In this document: positions 1 to 32,303 of the stretch, in pieces
Position numbering within the stretch: position 1 is the stretch's first letter
Layout: the number at the start of each line of letters is the position of its first letter
NCBI GenBank assembly: GCA_028534125.1
Contig: CM052816.1
Span: forward strand, 22,012,001-22,076,000
Direction: 5' to 3'
From: Lama glama
Taxonomy: Eukaryota
DNA length: 64,000 nucleotides
Program-made: the position numbers and the translations under genes
Notes under the pieces: model-generated
Database searches by the model: none
What the model was told of the DNA's origin: nothing
What the model saw: the letters and a program-made list of their open reading frames with translations, nothing else

Positions 1-225
1 ATTGAGGGAGAGAAGGGAGGATAGGAGATTCTAGGCCTGATTTGTGGAACATTTCAACAGTTAAAACTTGAGGAGTTGAGAACTAGCAGAGGAGACTGAG
101 AATTGGCCTTTCAGAATAGTAGGAGGAAAAGCAAGAGAGAGTACTTTTTGAGGTGAGCCAAGTGAAGAAAGTATTTTAAGAAGATAGGAGTTTTTGATCA
201 GTTATGTCAAATGCTGCTGATTATG
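1..225 (-). mobile_element. L2 (LINE2) fragment
   Basis: Purine-rich degenerate sequence (gaactagcagaggagactgagaattggcc, gtcaaatgctgctga) typical of antisense L2. Confidence 0.5.
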
Positions 226-2561
226 TAATAAATTGATGTAAAATAAGAAAATAATGAATATAAAATAGAACATAAGGATAACTAAAAAGAAGAAAAAGCA
301 AGGTTTTTTAGAAGTTCATTGGAAAGAAAAATGAGTTCCTAATGGGGAGATGTTTCATATGCACTGTGTCTTACAGGATGTATAAGCTTTTATAAACATA
401 AAGCTTTGAAAATTGGAGATAGTAGGATAGCAAGAAAAACTGATAACCTTGCCACCCAAAGATAACTCATTAACATTTGCTGAAAGTTTTATCAAGGCCT
501 TTTCTATGCGTATTATATTTTGACTTAATTGTGATTGTGCTGGATCCATATTGTTTGAATTATGTGCCTATTTTGAAAATGTCATCATTGTTAACATACA
601 TTTCTCATGTCATTATAAATGGCTCTTAATTATATTTTAGTGGCTTTCCTTCATTCAAGTAATTTTTATATTAGGCCATTTCCGCTTTTTCACAATTATA
701 GCTACACTATAGTTAACATCTTGATGAATTTTCCAGACTATATTTTAGAAGAGAATCTTGTGAATCAGTGGGTATTACTAAAGTTCTTAATCCCTGTGAC
801 AGTATGTGGAAGAGAAAGGATACAAAAAGGAGTAGTGAGAGGTATGGCTAGCAGAGTTAATGGGGACCGGGTCACAAAGAATCTAGAATGCTTGCCAGAA
901 GTTTTGACTGCATTTTTAAGGCTGTCTTCCAATTTTGCTTTAAGAATATTATTTGACAGTATGTTTAAAAGAAACTAGTAAAAGAAACTAGAGATGCAAG
1001 GCTAATTAGAATGGTCCAGAAAGCAGAGGATAAATTTCAGTAACTTAGTGGTGCCTGAGGATTGTCTGCCTCTAGGGAATACACTTTATTATTCACATTA
1101 AATCTGTTAAAAGACAGATAGATCATTAGTAGTATCTTTTTACTGAACAAATGAATAAAATCCGTTTTCATTTACTTTTTTAAGAAGTTCAGTGCTGGTG
1201 ACATTTTCTTCAGTTTGCTACTGTCTCTTTGGAAGTCTGTTGTTGCCAAAGTCAGTACATGTAATATTTAGCTAAGTGGCTGAACTGACATTTGAGTTAC
1301 TGGGAGAGGTGTTTAAGCCTTGTATGAAATTTGAAATAGTCAGGCACTAGAGAACTCATTAAAGGTGACTTTTTAAATGTTTTAATGCTTTGATCATTGT
1401 GCAACCTAAAGTGCACGTTGCAGTGCTTATTTAGTTGCCTGAATGTTCAAGTGTAACATCTCATTTCTTACAAAAGTAGAAAGATAAAGCTGAATGAATG
1501 CTTTCATATAAATGAATAGAACTTAATTTTAAAAGGTCTACAGTTAATTAATCATAGAATATAGTAAATACTGAACCATCCAAATAAGTTACCTTCTAGG
1601 GCCAATTTTCAAACTGTCATTTATTTATTTTTAAGGAAAAGATATGGATTTTATTTCTGAGCACTGTTGGAATTATTTTGAAGTCTTTGCTACTTTTTGA
1701 GATGTATAACATAATTAAAAATTTTATTATTGATGAAACTAAGGAAGAATACTGCTCAATTCTAGCTGAAGAATATTTACTTCTTTATAAATTTGGGAGT
1801 CTCTCAACAGTTTGTAAAAAACATAAAGTGTCACTTTTAACCTATGAAGCTTTTGGATGGTTGTGAACATGATTCTGGCCTGAAGTAGTCTAACCTTCTC
1901 TTAAATATATGTTAAAATTTTTAAAAATCAATTTGTAATTACATAAGTAATGCAAAATTACATTCTCTTGAAAAAGTCTAAAAAATTGCAAAGTTCTTTC
2001 TGATATCCATGTCCTAATCCTGATCCCCTTTTCATCTGCCTAAAAGCAGGGCTTCTCAAACTTGGCTAAATACGTTTTTAGGAAGGTAAAAATTACTTGT
2101 AACTTGTTATATCTTTCAGTAGAATCTTTTTATTGTAGATTTTAAAAAAGGATTTATTTAACAAAACTATTATCTATGAAATATGAGCAAAAACCAGGAG
2201 CTGCTATTTTTGAATTATCACTGTATGTTGTTCTGTTTGGGGGGAAAAAAAGCAGTTTTGTGTAACCCAGAAACTGTCAACATCAGTTTCCTTGTGTGTT
2301 GACATTCTGTGGTTTGACAGTTACAATAGGAGGCTTAACATTTGAAAATTTTCAGTTTTGTTATATTAATTAATGACTAAAGTTGCAAAGAAAAAGGAAA
2401 GAAAGCCACCATAAATATGTGTGGCTTCTTTATAACTATCTAGATAAGAATGGTGGTAGTGTCGTGGAAATATGTGACTTTGTCGTTCACTTTTTTTTTT
2501 GTTTTGTTTCCATATTTTGCCCATAATCAGTGTAAGAATTAACTATTTGGTTGCTTTCAAG

Positions 2562-2647
2562 GCTATGAAAATGAGCCGGAGATCAGCTGATGCCAGTCAG
2601 AGGAGTTTGGCATATAATCGAATAGTTGATGCCCTAAATGAATTCAG
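2562..2647 (+). CDS. FNIP1: FNIP1 internal coding exon (human exon 11 equivalent), [28 protein letters not shown](R)
   Basis: Acceptor ttgctttcaAG|GCT, donor TTCAG|gtacat; 86 nt; translation matches recalled FNIP1 and joins in frame (AG|A = Arg) to the exon at 15782. Confidence 0.95.
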
Positions 2648-3696
2648 GTACATATTCTCCAGCTTTTCATAATATAGAGTTGTTTCACAGTGTGCACAGG
2701 AAGATTTATTGATTTTCTTTACCTTATCCTAATAAAAGTTTAATTCTTTAAATTTCTCTGTCTCATAGTCAAATCAGGGTGTAATTCAGTAGGCCAGTGG
2801 CTCCTGTTCTACTAAATATCAAAAAATGCTTGGAATTCAGGCACATTTGGGAGCAATCCATGGTATGGTTTTTAGCATTGGGCAGTTACCTAAGCAAATA
2901 TGACCAGAAGCGACCCTTGTTTTAGCAGAAATGTACTTTGTCCTTTCTTGGGCTTCTAGATGTAAGGACTGGTTAAGTGTTGTTTAACCAGTAATAGTAA
3001 TCACAGGTTCTTAGATCTATGGAATACAAGGATACATGGATATAGGGAATAGGAACTTGATATTCCATATAGCGCTGTTGTTTAATCCTTTCTCTAGATA
3101 TGGCAAAGCAAATAGTATTTCCTCTGACAGGATTTTCTAGCACAACAAAACTTGTGCCTGGAGCTTTAGCAAGTGGTATAATGGCACTCTAATTATGGCA
3201 AGGAAACATATTATGTGTGAACTTATGTTGGGAATTACACTACGTGACTGATGAGTGTCTCCCTCAAAGAGATTCATTTCAGGTTTCCTTCATCCTCTCA
3301 TCCTCTCGGTGTTTCCTCCTTTAGACTGGAGAAATAGTATAGCACATAGGGCAGGAACTCAGACGTGAGTATCTGACAGGCCTTGTTCTAACCTGACTCT
3401 GCCTTTTCCCACCGCTGATGACCTTGGGCAGATTTCTGTTAGCATTTTTGACCCTTAGTTTTCTTGTGTACAGTCTGTAAACTCAATTTAGTAATAATCT
3501 AATAGATTGTTGTAAGGATAGAGTGAGGTAATGTATGTAAACTACTTAACAGAATGCCTGACATCAATGACAGCACTATTTTCTATGACAAATATAACCT
3601 ACAGCAGTGCTTCTCAAAAGTCATTCACAACTTACCTTTACAGTTTCGCCAAATCTGCATATCATTTATGCCATTTAAATTTGTTTCTCTTTGAAG

Positions 3697-14957: not shown

Positions 14958-15781
14958 TTCTAGAGAGTAGAAAGTAGGACACCGCTCTGTAGCTTCTGAG
15001 CAACTGACTAGTTTCTTAAGCCCCAAGTTTACAGGAGTTGCTTATTCTGGTGAGTGTATAAGATTTCACTGAATAGATATCAACTTAAAAGGAAAAGAAC
15101 TGACGTCTTAAAGGTATCCTTAATGCCTTTAGGAAAGAGTGCAAGTCACAGGACTAGCTGTTATCTAAAGGAATGCAAGAGAGACAGCCAGAATTGCACT
15201 GTCATAATGATGCAATAATCTTCTTTTGTGTTGATTCAAGGAAGAATGTCAGAACATTGAGAGTCGTAAAATATAGTATGCATATAGTGTCCTCATCATC
15301 CTTTAGAGCTTTACTAACGAGCCTCAGCATAGGCAAGAAAATGATGACAATAAACTATTGTTTTGAGTGGGTACGTGGCTAAACTATTACCCCATTTAAA
15401 GTATTTTTCTTTGTTGTTGATTATTTGCAGTTTATTTAAGTACAGCTTATACCTTAGAAATGTAGGGCTGAAAGGGGCTCTGAAAATTATATAGTCTTAT
15501 GCTTTCATTTTACAGGTAAGGAAAACTGATGATTAAAGTAGAGAAATAATTTACCTGAAACCACACAGCCTTTGAGCCATTGTCAGACCAACACATTTGA
15601 GTTCATGTACAAAGCATTTCCCTTGATGCTGTGCTGATGACAAAGAAGGAAAGATTTGATTCATTGTCTCTTCTCAAAAGCTTTAATAATCTAGATGTGA
15701 GACCCAAGCCGACAACATAAACTTTTAACAGTCTGTAATTCTGGAAACTATGAATTTCATAATATGTTTTTCTCTTTCTAG

Positions 15782-15928
15782 AACAACAATTTGTAATCTT
15801 TACACAATGCCACGAATTGGAGAGCCTGTGTGGCTTACAATGATGTCGGGGACTCCAGAAAAGAACCAGCTTTGCCATCGTTTCATGAAGGAGTTCACCT
15901 TTCTAATGGAAAATGCTTCCAAAAACCA
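15782..15928 (+). CDS. FNIP1: FNIP1 coding exon (exon 12 equivalent), [48 protein letters not shown](Q)
   Basis: tttctctttctAG acceptor, CA|gtatgg donor; 147 nt; lies within ORF 15750..16001; recognised FNIP1 sequence. Confidence 0.96.
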
Positions 15929-16799
15929 GTATGGCTTATTCTATTTATCTGTCAGTCTAAGCTATCTTAACTGTATTTTAGCTATTATTTACTGTAACTA
16001 GACATCTAGATTATGATCAAACTTAATTACAAAAGTGAAAGAATTAACCGTTATCTTTAGAGTTATTTCATATTATTAATAAGCAAAACAGAGTTATAAA
16101 AGATAAATAATAGATAGGGTGTAAAAAAAGGCCAAAGAAGCTTATGAATGAAAAACAGTAGAAATGTCTTTAATTGTGTTAAATTAAAATTCCTGACATC
16201 TTACAGAACTCTCTGAGGCTTCTTATTTTTTTATGAATTATATCCATATATTCAGTTTCATTCTATAGAAAAGAAGTTGAAAAATACATAAGGAAGTGTC
16301 AGGATTCCAGTAACACATTTGTAGTATGATACTTTATCATATTGTTTTCTTCTGGTCATTCCTCAAATTCCTGGAATCCAGATGAGTTTTATTTTTTATT
16401 CTCTTTAATGGTAGACAGTTTTCCTAATACTTTCCTTCATTTTCCATTCAGTAATTTGGAAATGTATAGACATACTGGTTGATTCATTAATATATGTGTG
16501 TATTAAACACTGAAAAGAATCCATAGTTTTTCAAGTAAAGTGGCATTTTTATTTTGTAATTATGGTTAGAAATAGATCCTTGTGAATGCTGTCTTTGTTT
16601 TAAAGTTTTTTCTTTTAACTCCTACCTAACCAAAATATTTATTAACTTTCATTTTTATCCTGGTGATAGACTGATACTTTCTTCTCTTCTTTTTTGTGCT
16701 GTTTGGCCAAGTACTCTCCCTGCTTTACTCCGTCACTGCATTTTGCCTAAAGTTTTATGAAAGGAGATTAGAATCTGATAGGATGCATTTTGTTTTCAG

Positions 16800-16969
16800 A
16801 TTCTTGCCAGCACTCATTACTGCAGTTCTGACCAATCATCTTGCCTGGGTTCCGACAGTCATGCCAAATGGACAACCACCTATAAAAATATTTTTAGAAA
16901 AACATTCCTCTCAGAGTGTGGACATGTTGGCAAAGACTCATCCATATAACCCACTTTGGGCACAACTGG
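16800..16969 (+). CDS. FNIP1: FNIP1 coding exon (exon 13 equivalent), [56 protein letters not shown](G)
   Basis: ttttgttttcAG acceptor, CTGG|gtatgt donor; 170 nt; conserved FNIP/Lst4-type DENN-core motifs [11 protein letters not shown] and [11 protein letters not shown]. Confidence 0.97.
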
Positions 16970-17859
16970 GTATGTGTTCTGAAAACCCTTACATTATGCA
17001 TTATATTTAGACTTTTGTGTCGAATTATTTTATAGCAAAAATAAATATGAAGAAATTAAGTGCTCTGTTTTCCTTCCTTTGTTCTAAAGTACCTCTTCAT
17101 TACTTGTTCTTTCATGTCTGCTAAATTGTCTTATCCCCATCTTATGCCTGATTATCATTCCTTGTAGTTCAGGAACTGCAGCTAGAACAAGAGGAGCAGG
17201 ATGATGGCTGATTTACTAGTAACTTCAAGGTCTTCAGGGTGTTTTGTATTAGATACCTTCCTGGAAAGAATGAATGAACAAAGTCACCTGTAATAGCTAG
17301 AATAACCTGGTTAACTGAGAAGCAGTCATTGAGGTTTCTATCATTCCACTTTTGTTTGTTTGCTGAGTAATTTTTGAAAATGTTTCCCTTAGTGCTAGGC
17401 CCTCCACTAAATAAATAGGTAACAGGAGAGAGGAATTAGTTGATGAGTTGACAGTCATTAGGAAGGCAGTATAGCATGGTGCTTATATTTAAGCACAAGC
17501 TATAGAGTTAGGCAGACCACGTTTGAATCATAGTTTCCTTATTTATAAGTGGAGATAGTAATAAATGGTACATCCTTCATGAAGTTGTGAAAATTAAATG
17601 AGATATTTACAGTACTTAGGACAGTGTCTGGTAAATGTAGTTGCTGTTACTTTTCTTACTCTATTGCTGTTTGGTTATGGGGGAGGAGTGTGATGAGCAC
17701 ATTTCAGTGATCTGGTAGAAACCTTAACTTCCCTTAGGTTCTGGTGGTGAGTGAGCTTGCCAGGCAGATTGTCATGTGGCTTATTGATTCATATAACCAG
17801 CCTCCCTCCCTCATTCCTACCCTGTCTGTTTCCTCCCTTACTCTCTTTTTTCCTTCCTT

Positions 17860-18275: not shown

Positions 18276-19712
18276 AGTTACCTTTTTTCAAATCAAGTAA
18301 TTCAGTAGTCCTCTTTTAAATTTGAACGTTTCAAATCTGTTTTCAGTTCTATAATCATTTATTGAATGTACAGTATACTTAAGGCTCTGGGTAAAGCTCA
18401 CTGGAAGGTGTAAAGGTGAATGATATCTAGTCCTTGCCTTTAAGAAGTGACAGACTTATACTGTACATAAAATATATGTGGACAATAACGATAATTCAAA
18501 GGAACTATGAGAGAAATGAAAAACTCAGTGGGAGTTCAATTAGGGAAGCTTCCTTTGGACTGGCAGAGACACGGAGGGAAGGGAAAGTATATAGCACTAT
18601 TAAAGGGGTCAAGGTATTGAAAGTACTGATCATATTCAGGGGTCCTATTTAAGTAGTCCCACTTTAAGTGGGACTTAGGGTGACTAAAGGTGAAAAAGGG
18701 TAACTATCAGAAGATAAACCTGAAAGAGTAAAGTAGAACCAATCATGAAAGACTTACCATGCCATCCAGTTTCAATTTATTCCGTAATTAGTGGGAACCT
18801 TGGGAGTAGTTTTGAACAGTGACATGTTGGTACTAAATCCAGTTCCTTAGCCAGAAGAGAAAATTTATCATAATACTGTCTATACCATATTATTTGAGAC
18901 TTATTTATGTTTGTTCCTTTAAAAAGTGTGTCGTTTTTGTAAAGTAAAAGTAGAGGTTTTTAAATGTGTCTAGTGACAACTTGCAAAACTTGAATTAAAT
19001 TTAATTATTTTATGTACTCCATTTTTAAGTGTGTTTTAGCACCAGTTTCTTTGTTGGTTTAAATTTGAGCTACAGCATAAATACAGAAATGACATTAATT
19101 ACTCCTAGGTCCTCCCTTCCCCCTTTTTAAATGTGGTGGCTCTTCATGTCTCGTATGGATACAGAAGTGACAGTGAATCACATGGCTGAACATGTCGCCC
19201 TGTTTTGTTTATCCTGAGTATCCAACCCTGTCAGGAATGAAATGGAAAATGAGTTTTTAAAAACATGGGAGCTACTGTGGAGTCTTGGGTAGGGGAGCAA
19301 CAGATGAAGTTCAGGAATATGATTTAAATCAAGAAACAGTAAGTGTGTGATGTGACTGCTCTGTTCCACTCTACTCCCTGCTTCAGACAGTACTTCTCCA
19401 TCTAGGTGAAGTGCTTTGCAAGGGGACTGGCACAGAGCATATTCTTGGTAAATGTGACTTTCACAGCTAACTGTTTGCTTGTGGTTTCAGAACCACTGTA
19501 GCTGCTTAAGGAGGAAGCTTGAAAGCCCTTTCTCTCTGGTTAAGACCATTCATTTCATCCTACTCTCCTGAACAGTCACTCATTTATTAAGGAACTAAGA
19601 GTGAAATCTAAACTATCCCTCATACAATAGGAGTAGGTTTCTGATAATTGAAAATAGCCTGCTTGGCTGAATCTGTAGAAGATGTGTCCATAAACTGATT
19701 TTTCCATTTCAG

Positions 19713-21126
19713 GAGACTTATATGGTGCTATTGGCTCTCCTGTACGGTTAGCAAGGACTGTGGTAGTTGGCAAACGACAAGATATGGTCCAGAGGCTGCT
19801 TTATTTTCTTACTTATTTCATAAGATGCTCTGAACTTCAAGAAACCCATCTTTTAGAAAGCGGAGAAGATGAAGCCATTGTTATGCCAGGCACAGTAATT
19901 ACTACCACTTTAGAGAAAGGTGAAATCGAAGAATCTGAGTATGTGCTAATCACAATGCATAGAAACAAAAGCAGTTTGCTCTTTAAAGAGTCAGAAGAAA
20001 CAAGGACTCCTAATTGTAACTGTAAATATTGCAGTCCTCCACTGCTTGGGCATAATATAGAGAATGTTTCACAACAAGAGAGAGAAGATATTCAAAACAG
20101 CTCTAAGGAGCTGCTAGGAATTTCAGATGAGTGCCGAATGATTTCTCCTTCTGACTGCCAAGAAGAAAATGCTGTTGATGTTAAACAGTACCGAGATAAA
20201 TTAAGAACTTGCCTTGACACCAAGTTAGAAACAGTTGTTTGCACAGGCTCTGCTCCAGTAGACAAATGTGCATTGTCAACGTCAGGCTTAGAGCCAGCAG
20301 AGGAAACATGGCAAAGTGAGGAATTGCTGGACACGGGTGATCACACAGGTAAAATGTTGAGATCCACGGGAATGGTTGTAGAAAAAAAACCTCCAGATAA
20401 GCTTGTGACGGCTGCATTTTCTTGTGAGGCAACCCAGACAAAAGTTACTTTCTTGATTGGGGATTCTATGTCACCTGACTCAGATACTGAGCTCCGGAGT
20501 CAGGCAGTGGTGGATCAGATTACCAGGCATAACACCAAACCACCGAAGGAAGAAAGGGGGACTGTTGATCAGCATCAAGAACCTAAACAAACAGTGAAAT
20601 CTGGAGAGCCTGATACACCGAACATAGTTTCTGGAGAACCCTGCGAACTTCCCTGCTGGAATCATTCAGACCCAGAAAGCATGAGCTTATTTGATGAATA
20701 TTTTAATGATGATTCAATTGAAACGAGGACTATTGATGATATTCCAGTTAAAACAAGTACAGACAGTAAAGAATACTGCTGTATGTTAGAGTTTTCAAAA
20801 AGATTGTGTACAAAAAATAACAAACAGAACAATGAATTTTGTAAATGTGTAGAATCAGTTCACCAAGACTCATGTAAAACCTGCTTTCCTCAGCAAGACC
20901 AAAGAGATACACTCTCCATGCTTGTCCCCCATGGGGATAAAGAGAGTTCAGAGAAAAAAATTGCTGTGGGAACTGAATGGGACATTCCAAGAAATGAAAG
21001 TTCAGATAGTGCCCTCGGGGATAGTGAAAGTGAAGATACAGGTCATGATATGACTAGACAAGTAAGCAGTTACTATGGAGGAGAGCAAGAAGATTGGGCA
21101 GAAGAAGATGAGATACCTTTTCCTGG
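19713..21126 (+). CDS. FNIP1: FNIP1 large coding exon (exon 14 equivalent): DENN segment, Cys-rich FEM1B degron, acidic linker and CK2 phosphoserine cluster [14 protein letters not shown]
   Basis: tttttccatttcAG|GAGAC acceptor, CCTGG|gtaagt donor; 1414 nt of open frame (ORF 19760..21130, 456 aa); starts [43 protein letters not shown]. Confidence 0.98.
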
Positions 21127-21424
21127 GTAAGTAGGAAGTTTTAACCTGTTATAAACCTTTTATAAATATGAACCATTCTTTTGTTTAGCTGACCTCTGAA
21201 AGTTGTTAGTAGTTAATAGAAGAGATCTTTGTCCTGGACATACTCTCTTTTATTATCTTGTGCTCTTACTTATAAGGATTAAAAGGCATCCACAGGCATC
21301 CCAGAAAAGCTTTTTGAAGGCATTAGAGAAAAGTTATGTTGGTGCTTGGGAGACCCCTTAGTGCTTAGAAGTTTTCAAGCCGTTTCAGAGCTAATTATGC
21401 CCCCCTAAAAGAATCTACGCTGTA

Positions 21425-22081: not shown

Positions 22082-22250
22082 GTCAAAGTTAATTGAAGTG
22101 AGTGCTGTTCAGCCCAATATTGCCAACTTTGGGAGGTCCTTGCTGGGTGGCTACTGCTCGTCTTATGTGCCTGACTTTGTTCTTCAAGGAATTGGGAATG
22201 ATGAGAGGCTCCGTCAGTGTCTTGTGTCAGATTTGTCTCATGCTGTGCAG
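22082..22250 (+). CDS. FNIP1: FNIP1 coding exon (exon 15 equivalent), [56 protein letters not shown]
   Basis: ttttcttccAG acceptor, CAG|gtgagt donor; 169 nt; FNIP C-terminal motif [11 protein letters not shown]. Confidence 0.97.
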
Positions 22251-25850: not shown

Positions 25851-26302
25851 TTAATGCCTGACAGGCTGGGATAGTTAGCACAGAATCTTATCATTGACTT
25901 GTTCATGTGAATTCCTGTCTTATCTGTTTTAAAAATATTTAGCTCTTTCAAGGTAAAAACATTTTCTTTCAGTTTCCTCGTACATAGCTAGTACTCAACA
26001 AACTTGTGGCATGAACGAATGAATGAATAATCAAAAGACTGGTGAAAGTTAAATTCTAGATTAAAGGATACAGAGTTCTGGTAATGATTTGCTACCTATG
26101 ATGATTTCTGTAAGATATCTAAGGGTGTTTGTTATTGAGTTACTTTACTATTTCATTCTCCACTGTTAAGGATTCTTTGGCAGCAGCTCTCAGAATTTTG
26201 CATTCTTTTTTTTTTCTGTTTTTGTTTAGTGTCTCTCCTTGCCTCATTTCATTAACATTATCTTAGAAAACTGTATTTTAAGATTAATTCTTTGTTTTCC
26301 AG

Positions 26303-26500
26303 CATCCAGTATTGGATGAACCAATAGCAGAAGCTGTCTGTATTATAGCAGATATGGATAAATGGACTGTTCAAGTCGCCAGTAGCCAGAGACGAATGAC
26401 AGACAATAAACTGGGAAAGGAAGTATTGGTTTCCAGTCTTGTTTCCAATCTGCTTCATTCCACTCTTCAGCTATATAAACATAACTTGTCTCCAAATTTT
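26303..26500 (+). CDS. FNIP1: FNIP1 coding exon (exon 16 equivalent), [25 protein letters not shown]...[10 protein letters not shown]
   Basis: tttgttttccAG acceptor, TTT|gtaagt donor; 198 nt, phase 0-0. Confidence 0.97.
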
Positions 26501-26585
26501 GTAAGTATGTGTAAGACTTGAATTAATAATTTGTGCCTACATGGAATACCACTGTTAGCTTCATCATTGTTTTCCTGAAAGAAAG

Positions 26586-30271: not shown

Positions 30272-30387
30272 TGTGTAATGCATCTTGAAGACCGGTTACA
30301 AGAGCTGTACTTCAAGAGCAAAATGCTGTCTGAGTACCTGAGAGGGCAGATGCGTGTCCATGTCAAGGAGCTGGGAGTGGTTCTAGG
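30272..30387 (+). CDS. FNIP1: FNIP1 coding exon (exon 17 equivalent), [38 protein letters not shown](G)
   Basis: ttccctttccacctgcAG acceptor, CTAGG|gtatgt donor; 116 nt; in frame with both neighbouring exons. Confidence 0.97.
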
Positions 30388-32224
30388 GTATGTTCCTGTT
30401 TTCTTTCCTAGCTTTGGTTTTTCATTGCACTGTCTTTAGGCAAGGAATATTCTTCAGAACTGCCTTTTTTCCTTTTAAGTGTTTCCTCTTGTTAGAAGCT
30501 GTACATTGTTGTCATCTGGATTGCTCTATGCCATATAAAAGCAGATACTTGTCCTCCAGTGATCTGAAAGGCATTGTCTCTTCTGCCAGTAAGTTGAGAA
30601 TATAGTCAGATAAAAGTGAATTAAAATCTAAATTTTTGCATTAGAAAAAACCCAGTCAATATTCATCTTTATTTATTAAATATATTATAGACTTATCATT
30701 CCCAGCATCTGCCCTGCCATATAAATGAGCTGTTTGTAGTAACGGCACTCTGGATAGAAGTATGTTATCTGAATAGTGTTACTCCTTCCTCACTGTGTAT
30801 ATATTATTTCTTTATACTGTGCAGTTATTCCTAGGAAGAAGCTAGTTATCTAAAATGCTTACTGGAGGATGAACAGGAAATTGGTGAGAGACATCGTATA
30901 GCCTCTTTATTGTATTTTGTGGTCACTTTCCTTATGTTCTGTGGTGACTTTTCACATGTGTTTGTGTGTGTATATGAATTGTTTCTTGAAATGCTGGTTG
31001 AATAAAACAAGCTAGAAGCATCAGTGAGTGGCTACTGTCTGTCTGAAGCCAGATTAAATTCTTTCATTAATGTTATTCTTTATTGAGAGTGAAAATAGAT
31101 GATTCTCAGTAATGCCTTTACTTTTCAAAAATTTAAACTAATTTTTAAGTAATATACATATAACCAAAGTGTACAGTGCATTTTGTTATAAAATGAAAAG
31201 TAAGTTGTATTGTCTTCTCCCCAACTTCCAGTCCTCATCCACACATAGTTAATGGATTGTTTCTTCTTACAGCATTTTTAAAATATATGTACTCTATCAT
31301 TGTGCAGCTTGCCTTTTAATAGATCTTGAATGTTCATTAAAGCACATAGTGCACATTACTGATCTGTATCATTTTTAATGACTGTATTGCATTCCATTAT
31401 TTGGTGGAATTTAGATTATTTTCAGTTTTTTGCTGTTACAGATCAACACTGGAATAAATATAAATCTTTGAAGTCTGTAGGATAACTTCTTTGAAGTAGA
31501 GTTTTTGGTTAAAGGGCATGTGTATTAAATTGTTGATAGATACTGATATTTATTTTGACATAGTAATAGTAAATGCTATCCAGAAAGTACCAGAATAAAT
31601 TCTCACAAACAGTGGGAAGCCTACTCTTCCTATGACTCACTGTAACCAAACTTTTTAATCTTTGCTGAGCTACTAGCTAAAAAATGGAGTCTGATTTTAT
31701 TCAGGTTTATTCTCTAACCATGAGTAAGTCTGCATGACTTTCCCTGTATCTAATGGCCATTTTTCTTTTCCGGTAAATTTTTTGTGGTAGGATGTATTTT
31801 TAAGAAGCTACCATTACTTCTTCCCAGTACATCTTGTTATAGATACACTTGTATCCAAAACAATATGTGTGCACTCTATTATTTTGTCATTATACTGTGT
31901 AGTATTTATTAGACATTGTCCCTTGCCCTGATGCATGGTCTATCAGCAGATCAGTGAGATGGTTTTCTAAATCCATGACTTCGTTATCATTGGGTTCAGA
32001 ACCTTTCTTTTAAAAAAATCTTTAGTTATGGTTTTTACTTGCTGAAAAATGTCTAACTTTCATTCTCTTCGGTTCTCTTACCCTTTTTCCTTTTAGCTAG
32101 GGTAGCTTACTTAGGTCCTTGATTGTTGACATATAGTGACTTTACAGGTAGCCATCATTGCCTATAGAACTCATGTACTGGGTACAGAAAACCTGAACTG
32201 AGTTTTTTTTTTTTTTAATTTCAG

Positions 32225-32303
32225 AATTGAATCCAGTGATCTTCCTCTTCTGGCTGCTGTAGCAAGCACTCACTCGCCATATGTTGCTCAGATACTCCTT
32301 TAA
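32225..32303 (+). CDS. FNIP1: FNIP1 terminal coding exon, [25 protein letters not shown]
   Basis: T-run aatttcAG acceptor; TAA stop at 32301-32303; recognised FNIP1 C-terminus. Confidence 0.97.

Follow-up and report, generated by a model that had tools for sequence, protein, structure and literature searches.

The reductive-stress degron of FNIP1 is an element of 30 residues, 562-591 in mouse numbering, through which the protein is bound by FEM1B. A Lys-Tyr pair within this element has a role in the FNIP1–FEM1B complex, and His587 is reportedly among the zinc ligands in the mouse/human degron, as Manford et al. are said to have described in 2021. Published accounts term the three degron cysteines 'invariant' (PMC12026037), place zinc at the FNIP1–FEM1B interface together with FEM1B Cys186 (PMC12612594, PMC11719315), assign the zinc-binding motif to degron residues 579-585 (PMC10943247), and locate the His at 587 within a Cys/His-rich zinc site of the mouse/human complex (PMC9098119). 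Public records already contain the gene and its degron as well as the camelid sequence; within the literature searched, we found nothing on variation at position 587, on camelid FNIP1 or on the testing of degrons with Arg or Pro at this position. Here we describe the camelid form of the degron, in which proline occupies position 587, and discuss it in the context of the residues that other tetrapods carry at the same site.

The DNA analysed here, referred to as the window, is a stretch of 64,000 nucleotides from a camelid outside the genus Camelus, and it carries a normal, intact camelid FNIP1 gene. With an exon that is 98% and not 100% identical to the Camelus protein, the animal is, by elimination, probably a South American camelid. 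A search of the window for open reading frames placed the exon with the degron inside a single open frame of 478 codons (19694..21130). This exon encodes 472 aa that align with residues 507-978 of Camelus FNIP1 isoform X1 (P0278), its ends being set by protein alignment and not by splice-site analysis. P0278, which comprises four accessions from C. dromedarius and C. bactrianus ('n=2 Tax=Camelus'), was found as a member of a 90% cluster whose representative is the narwhal; it is identical to the exon at 464 of 472 residues (98%) and differs at the remaining 8. The first 43 residues of the exon match Pfam FNIP_M (E 3.8e-16) and constitute the end of that domain, and the full-length best matches of the exon, among the best 120, are mammalian FNIP1 proteins with 81-93% identity. 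Comparison of P0278 with the window by tblastn recovered eight open FNIP1 exons between 2562 and 32300, which cover approximately residues 373-1164 and are 97-100% identical to Camelus. The features of the locus are listed below, with exon residues numbered as in P0278 and degron residues as in mouse; the placental rows are those of the alignment described further on.

2562..2648, plus strand: FNIP1 exon, approximately residues 373-401 (tblastn, bounds approximate)
15780..15932, plus strand: FNIP1 exon, residues 401-451 (98% identical to Camelus)
16798..16971, plus strand: FNIP1 exon, residues 450-507 (98% identical to Camelus)
19712..21127, plus strand: large middle exon of FNIP1, 472 aa, residues 507-978
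19961..20050, plus strand: 30-residue FEM1B-binding reductive-stress degron, residues 562-591 (PDB matches 7roy_G, 8je2_H, 9j64_J)
20015..20032, plus strand: degron core C580-N-C582-K583-Y584-C585, TGT AAC TGT AAA TAT TGC (translation)
20036..20038, plus strand: CCT, Pro at the position of mouse His587 / human His615, the variable fourth-ligand site (translation)
20051..20053, plus strand: CAT, His592, just past the 30-mer; Gln in 67/71 placental rows (translation, 71-row alignment)
22083..22250, plus strand: FNIP1 exon, residues 979-1034 (100% identical to Camelus)
26300..26509, plus strand: FNIP1 exon, residues 1034-1103 (97% identical to Camelus)
30272..30388, plus strand: FNIP1 exon, residues 1101-1139 (100% identical to Camelus)
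32226..32300, plus strand: last coding exon of FNIP1, residues 1140-1164 (100% identical to Camelus)

The degron-bearing exon is present as a single copy in the 2.35 Gb genome to which the window belongs. A genome-wide search returned one second match only, a FNIP2-like exon (C2:107264288-107267548) that covers residues 1-85 of the FNIP1 exon with 66% identity; this paralogous match ends right before the place of the degron. The single genomic copy and the eight open exons together rule out that the stretch represents a pseudogene or a paralogue. In a protein tree the window's exon is positioned within Laurasiatheria and outside every sampled order, on an end branch of 0.035 that equals the median of 0.035; the camelid branch of this exon is not accelerated. 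Some of the database records for the gene carry unexpected labels: UniRef FNIP1 entries of Propithecus, Prolemur and the Myotis cluster are titled 'Rap guanine nucleotide exchange factor 6', and a Cervus FNIP1 record has a fused RasGEF_N domain, both of which are probably read-through annotations with a neighbouring gene.

The closest described counterparts are the mouse and human degrons in complex with FEM1B (7ROY, 8UY3 peptide 562-591; 8JE2, 9J64), to each of which the camelid element is identical at 28 of 30 residues. The match of the window's 30-mer to the crystallised peptide (7roy_G, also 8uy3) has an E value of 4e-16, and the differences are confined to His>Pro at peptide position 26 and Val>Leu; with respect to human FNIP1 (8je2_H residues 590-619) they are confined to Ile>Thr and His>Pro. 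The camelid form keeps all three degron cysteines, encoded at 20015-17 (TGT), 20021-23 (TGT) and 20030-32 (TGC), as well as the Lys583-Tyr584 pair and Pro588, whereas Pro replaces the only His of the mouse/human peptide (587/615) and a camelid His, His592, lies just outside it. The substrate-side His587 is a feature that the window shares neither with mouse nor with human; it is likewise absent (Arg, Pro or Leu instead) from 38 of 71 placental rows, and it consequently marks the human/mouse form and not the family. An earlier, sequence-only reading of this locus had named the gene as FNIP1 and the element as its FEM1B reductive-stress degron, which the match to 7roy_G/8je2_H corroborates, and had thought of a camelid as the source, which the comparison with Camelus bears out. 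It had also placed CCT (Pro) at 20036-20038 within the 30-mer at 19961-20050, numbered the replaced His 587 in the degron and about 615 in the full-length human protein, and described all Cys and the KY pair as kept; these points agree with the exact translation, the PDB alignments and the codons at 20015..20032, respectively.

To place the camelid Pro in a wider context, we used a placental set of 71 rows, made up of 61 species from the best 120 matches, nine named cluster members and the window. Each species is represented by one row, and felids, mustelids, squirrels, Peromyscus, macaques, manatees and Sorex by one species per group; the rows dropped carry the same residue at the site as the relative that was retained. 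Position 587 is occupied by Arg in 33 rows, His in 31, Pro in four, Cys in two and Leu in one, and the best 120 FNIP1 matches, isoforms included, give a comparable picture (Arg 62, His 50, Cys 4, Pro 2, Leu 2). With an entropy of 1.50 bits over the 71 rows the site is the most variable within 562-591 and ranks 21st among the 472 columns of the exon. The surrounding residues are C582, K583 and C585 in 71/71 rows, and C580, Y584 and P588 in 70/71. Arg587 is found in hoofed mammals and whales (pig, peccary, donkey; right, grey, rorqual and beaked whales; dolphins), in carnivores and pangolins (dog, fox, cats, meerkat, seals, stoat, pangolins), in bats (horseshoe bats, leaf-nosed bats, Molossus) and in elephants, manatee, an elephant shrew, sloth, anteater, capuchin, two lemurs and pikas. 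His587 is found in macaque, tarsier, aye-aye, two lemurs and all 19 rodents, as well as in shrews, moles, hedgehog, fruit bats, Myotis, narwhal and Rhynchocyon. Rows added beyond the 71 show Arg587 in deer and bottlenose dolphin and His587 in the black rhinoceros. Neither the best 120 matches nor 150 representatives nor 74 near-length matches included a marsupial or monotreme FNIP1.

To judge by this alignment, the fourth ligand position of the FNIP1 degron is evolutionarily labile across placentals. The His had initially been taken as conserved; the orthologues carry it in fewer than half of the rows and show it to be the most variable residue of the 30-mer. The prospect that Pro is widespread at this site across mammals had been raised as well, and here the outcome is mixed, in that a residue other than His is indeed widespread but Pro itself is not. 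Outside the camelids Pro587 occurs in two bats, Miniopterus natalensis and Saccopteryx leptura, in which it arose independently and in different surroundings. In M. natalensis the sequence reads CSPALLGQ, with Ala at 588 and no His592, unlike camelids. S. leptura (P0072) has the Pro-Pro pair but lacks His592, and Phe replaces its first Cys (580); as the only one of the 71 rows without C580, this species is a candidate for a truly weakened degron. A departure of another kind is seen in the tenrec Echinops telfairi (P0123), where His replaces the Tyr of the Lys-Tyr pair (CTCKHCSCP).

The direction of change was reconstructed by Fitch parsimony on the accepted ordinal tree. On the 71 tips the site requires a minimum of 16 changes, and the nodes of Scrotifera, Fereuungulata and Euungulata all come out as Arg. 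An extended analysis that added deer, rhinoceros, dolphin and six non-placental outgroup rows favours Arg over His at Fereuungulata by three steps against five and at Euungulata by three against four, with 18 steps in total and three origins of Pro. The placental root is ambiguous between R and H on the 71 tips, and R is ahead by one step when the outgroups are included. Camelid Pro587 therewith most likely replaced Arg and not His, and the single CAT>CCT change that had been proposed gives way to Arg>Pro, which the Arg at the ancestral nodes favours. Because the camelid ancestors would already have carried Arg, which does not bind zinc, no ligand was removed on the camelid branch. In the genetic code, CGY (Arg) alone is one base away from CAY (His), TGY (Cys), CCY (Pro) and CTY (Leu). 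The camelid step would accordingly be CGY>CCY, as derived from the code alone, and the CpG in CGY would favour repeated mutation to His and Cys. A pattern scan of metagenomes for host FNIP1 codons yielded two loci, both of them fortuitous, with TAA in place of the variable codon and without any similarity to FNIP1.

The partner protein was located in the same genome with a short FEM1B motif, which was back-translated and gave one match:

C15:24902248-24905276, positions 201-1826, minus strand: FEM1B locus, 552-codon frame (540/542 identical to human FEM1B)

Over residues 86-627 this FEM1B is identical to the human protein (8wqa_D) at 540 of 542 positions, and His185, Cys186 and His218 are all retained. 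The sequence-only reading had suggested a check of this H185/C186/H218 region for compensatory changes, and none was found within residues 86-627. The two differences from human FEM1B are Ile/Val near 270 and Ser/Pro near 429, and the protein is far more conserved than the degron-bearing exon of FNIP1 (~90%).

Which degron, then, does the camelid element resemble most in its presumed working? Most other Laurasiatheria as well as Afrotheria and Xenarthra, including pig, deer, whales, donkey, dog, cat, pangolins, elephants, manatees, sloth and others, possess an Arg-type degron, which has CxCKYC and Pro588 and, as in camelids, no metal-binding side chain at 587. The two differ in that the Arg type combines Arg587, charged and flexible, with Gln592, whereas the camelid form combines Pro587, in a Pro-Pro pair, with His592. 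Most likely, the three Cys and the Lys-Tyr pair allow the camelid degron to function as the Arg type does. In its reduced state camelid FNIP1 would still be recruited to CUL2-FEM1B via zinc, coordinated by the three cysteines in reduced form together with the ligands that FEM1B contributes, in the manner of Arg-type mammals. One zinc site would then have its fourth position filled by water or a different donor, or would be weaker. From the intact state of the residues kept across placentals and the unchanged FEM1B we infer that recruitment and degradation persist. It is quite probable, on the sequences compared here, that nothing about the arrangement is specific to camelids and that any difference from the His-type degron is shared with Arg-type mammals. 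This does not make the position functionally irrelevant, as non-ligand variants at 587 may bind FEM1B more weakly; moreover Pro-Pro, conformationally tighter than Arg-Pro, could differ from the Arg type beyond what the sequence reveals.

Three other explanations of the camelid residue deserve consideration. That CCT stems from faulty assembly or sequencing, or that the stretch is a pseudogene or paralogue, has a vanishingly small probability: the string CSPPLLGH is identical in the window, in C. dromedarius/C. bactrianus (P0278) and in C. ferus (P0306), the eight exons are all open and closely match Camelus, and the exon has no second copy in the genome. In addition, of 24 sequencing runs that a search brought up, 22, from 13 studies, contain the stretch or part of it (17 with at least half of the sampled words), although such word shares do not show the base itself. 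Among the cluster members examined, no open reading frame derived from camelid sequencing runs (Logan) was found that could represent a further individual. The agreement between independent records of at least three Camelus species and the window's genome indicates that Pro587 is no assembly error, which upholds the earlier view of the Pro as genuine, and by the same comparison it is fixed, family-wide and old in camelids. Being common to Camelus and to the non-Camelus lineage of the window, the Pro predates their split, which one source dates to more than 11 million years ago (PMC13751797), and on this evidence it would also predate any desert or high-altitude specialisation of camelids. This age bears directly on the proposal that camelids lost a conserved zinc-binding His and gained a rigid Pro-Pro that retunes the redox threshold of FNIP1 for desert or high-altitude life. 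The Pro is certainly genuine, fixed across camelids and rare (4/71 rows), and the mouse/human His belongs to the Cys/His-rich zinc site (PMC9098119). Against these points stand not only the age of the change but also the missing conservation of the His (31/71 rows), the Arg found in all sampled near relatives except narwhal and rhinoceros and at the ancestral nodes, and the presence of Pro587 in two bats without shared ecology. Nor is there any excess of camelid changes in the degron. In the exon, the window and Camelus have ten derived residues in common that ten Laurasiatherian outgroups lack; one of them falls within the 30-mer, where 0.64 would be expected, and one more just after it. Evolution focused on the degron in camelids is rejected on this count. 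With a variable site, an Arg-bearing ancestor and an unchanged FEM1B, the premise of the retuning proposal fails, and we consider it improbable.

The derived residue just after the 30-mer leads to the remaining explanation, in which camelid His592 (LLGH instead of LLGQ), situated five residues beyond 587, becomes the fourth zinc ligand and Pro587 and His592 together make up a rewired degron. His592 occurs in four of the 71 rows, namely the window, Camelus and two pikas, and the pikas are likewise ligand-less at 587, where they have Arg; that two camelid changes lie five residues apart adds to the appeal of the idea. However, 34 other rows are ligand-less at 587 and have Gln, not His, at 592; residue 592 is moreover outside the 562-591 peptide, which suffices for binding; and with ten derived residues among 472, about one pair within five residues is to be expected by chance, according to our estimate. 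A relocated ligand is for these reasons very improbable. The two pikas with His592 and Arg587 have a further His at 589. The reading that we prefer remains that of a camelid degron equivalent to the Arg type.

Beyond the placentals the site has a longer history. Fifteen non-placental tetrapod rows (P0308-P0322; 51-67% identity), those named being from Jacana and Agelaius (birds), Chelonia (turtle), Varanus and Lerista (lizards) and Engystomops (frog), include 12 that match C-x-C-K-x-C-x-C-P and one that has Ala at the site; the other two are frog rows in which a Cys within KKCQCCQCP is aligned at the site. This four-Cys form, CSCKYCKCP in Jacana, Agelaius, Chelonia and Varanus, CRCP in Lerista and KKCQCCQCP in Engystomops, has the same spacing and following Pro as the camelid degron, with Cys at 587 in 12 of 13 motif-matched rows and Ala in one, whereas placentals including camelids replaced the Cys. 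Lungfish, sturgeon and teleost-like FNIP1 rows lack a motif of the CxCKxCxCP type in the alignments examined, and the degron element appears to be a tetrapod invention. Taken together, these alignments portray site 587 as an old metal-ligand position, occupied by Cys, that was relaxed in placentals, with the His of human and mouse as one later state. Three rows that are sauropsid-like and bird-like (P0310, P0312, P0313) have Asn in place of the Tyr (CSCKNCKCP).

A more far-reaching interpretation, to which we attach a low likelihood, is that site 587 acts as an evolutionary rheostat: with Cys in birds, reptiles and a frog and at least 16-17 switches between Arg, His, Cys, Leu and Pro among placentals, the ligand-less lineages would bind the zinc of the interface in another way and hence sense reductive stress at a different set-point. 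If this were true, about half of the sampled placentals would differ from human and mouse, the species in which the pathway was defined, and camelids, with their Pro-Pro and His592, would represent one extreme of a so far undescribed natural series.

Irrespective of that interpretation, the change in camelids provides no handle on their desert or altitude physiology, the residue replaced in Arg>Pro having been no zinc ligand already. The wider relevance concerns the choice of model species. Roughly half of the placentals sampled lack His587, among them pig, dog, cat, donkey and whales, and in sauropsids and a frog Cys takes its place; if site 587 affects affinity, results obtained in model species may not transfer quantitatively to mammals without the His. 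The natural allelic series of Cys, His, Arg, Pro and Leu could furthermore show how many substrate ligands a zinc glue needs. A minor observation concerns P0151, a short open reading frame of 69 aa that is similar to the degron region and contains many changes of the Thr>Ile and Pro>Leu/Phe kind (…SCNCKYCSYLFFG); to all appearances this is a piece of a degenerate mammalian pseudogene that derives from FNIP1.
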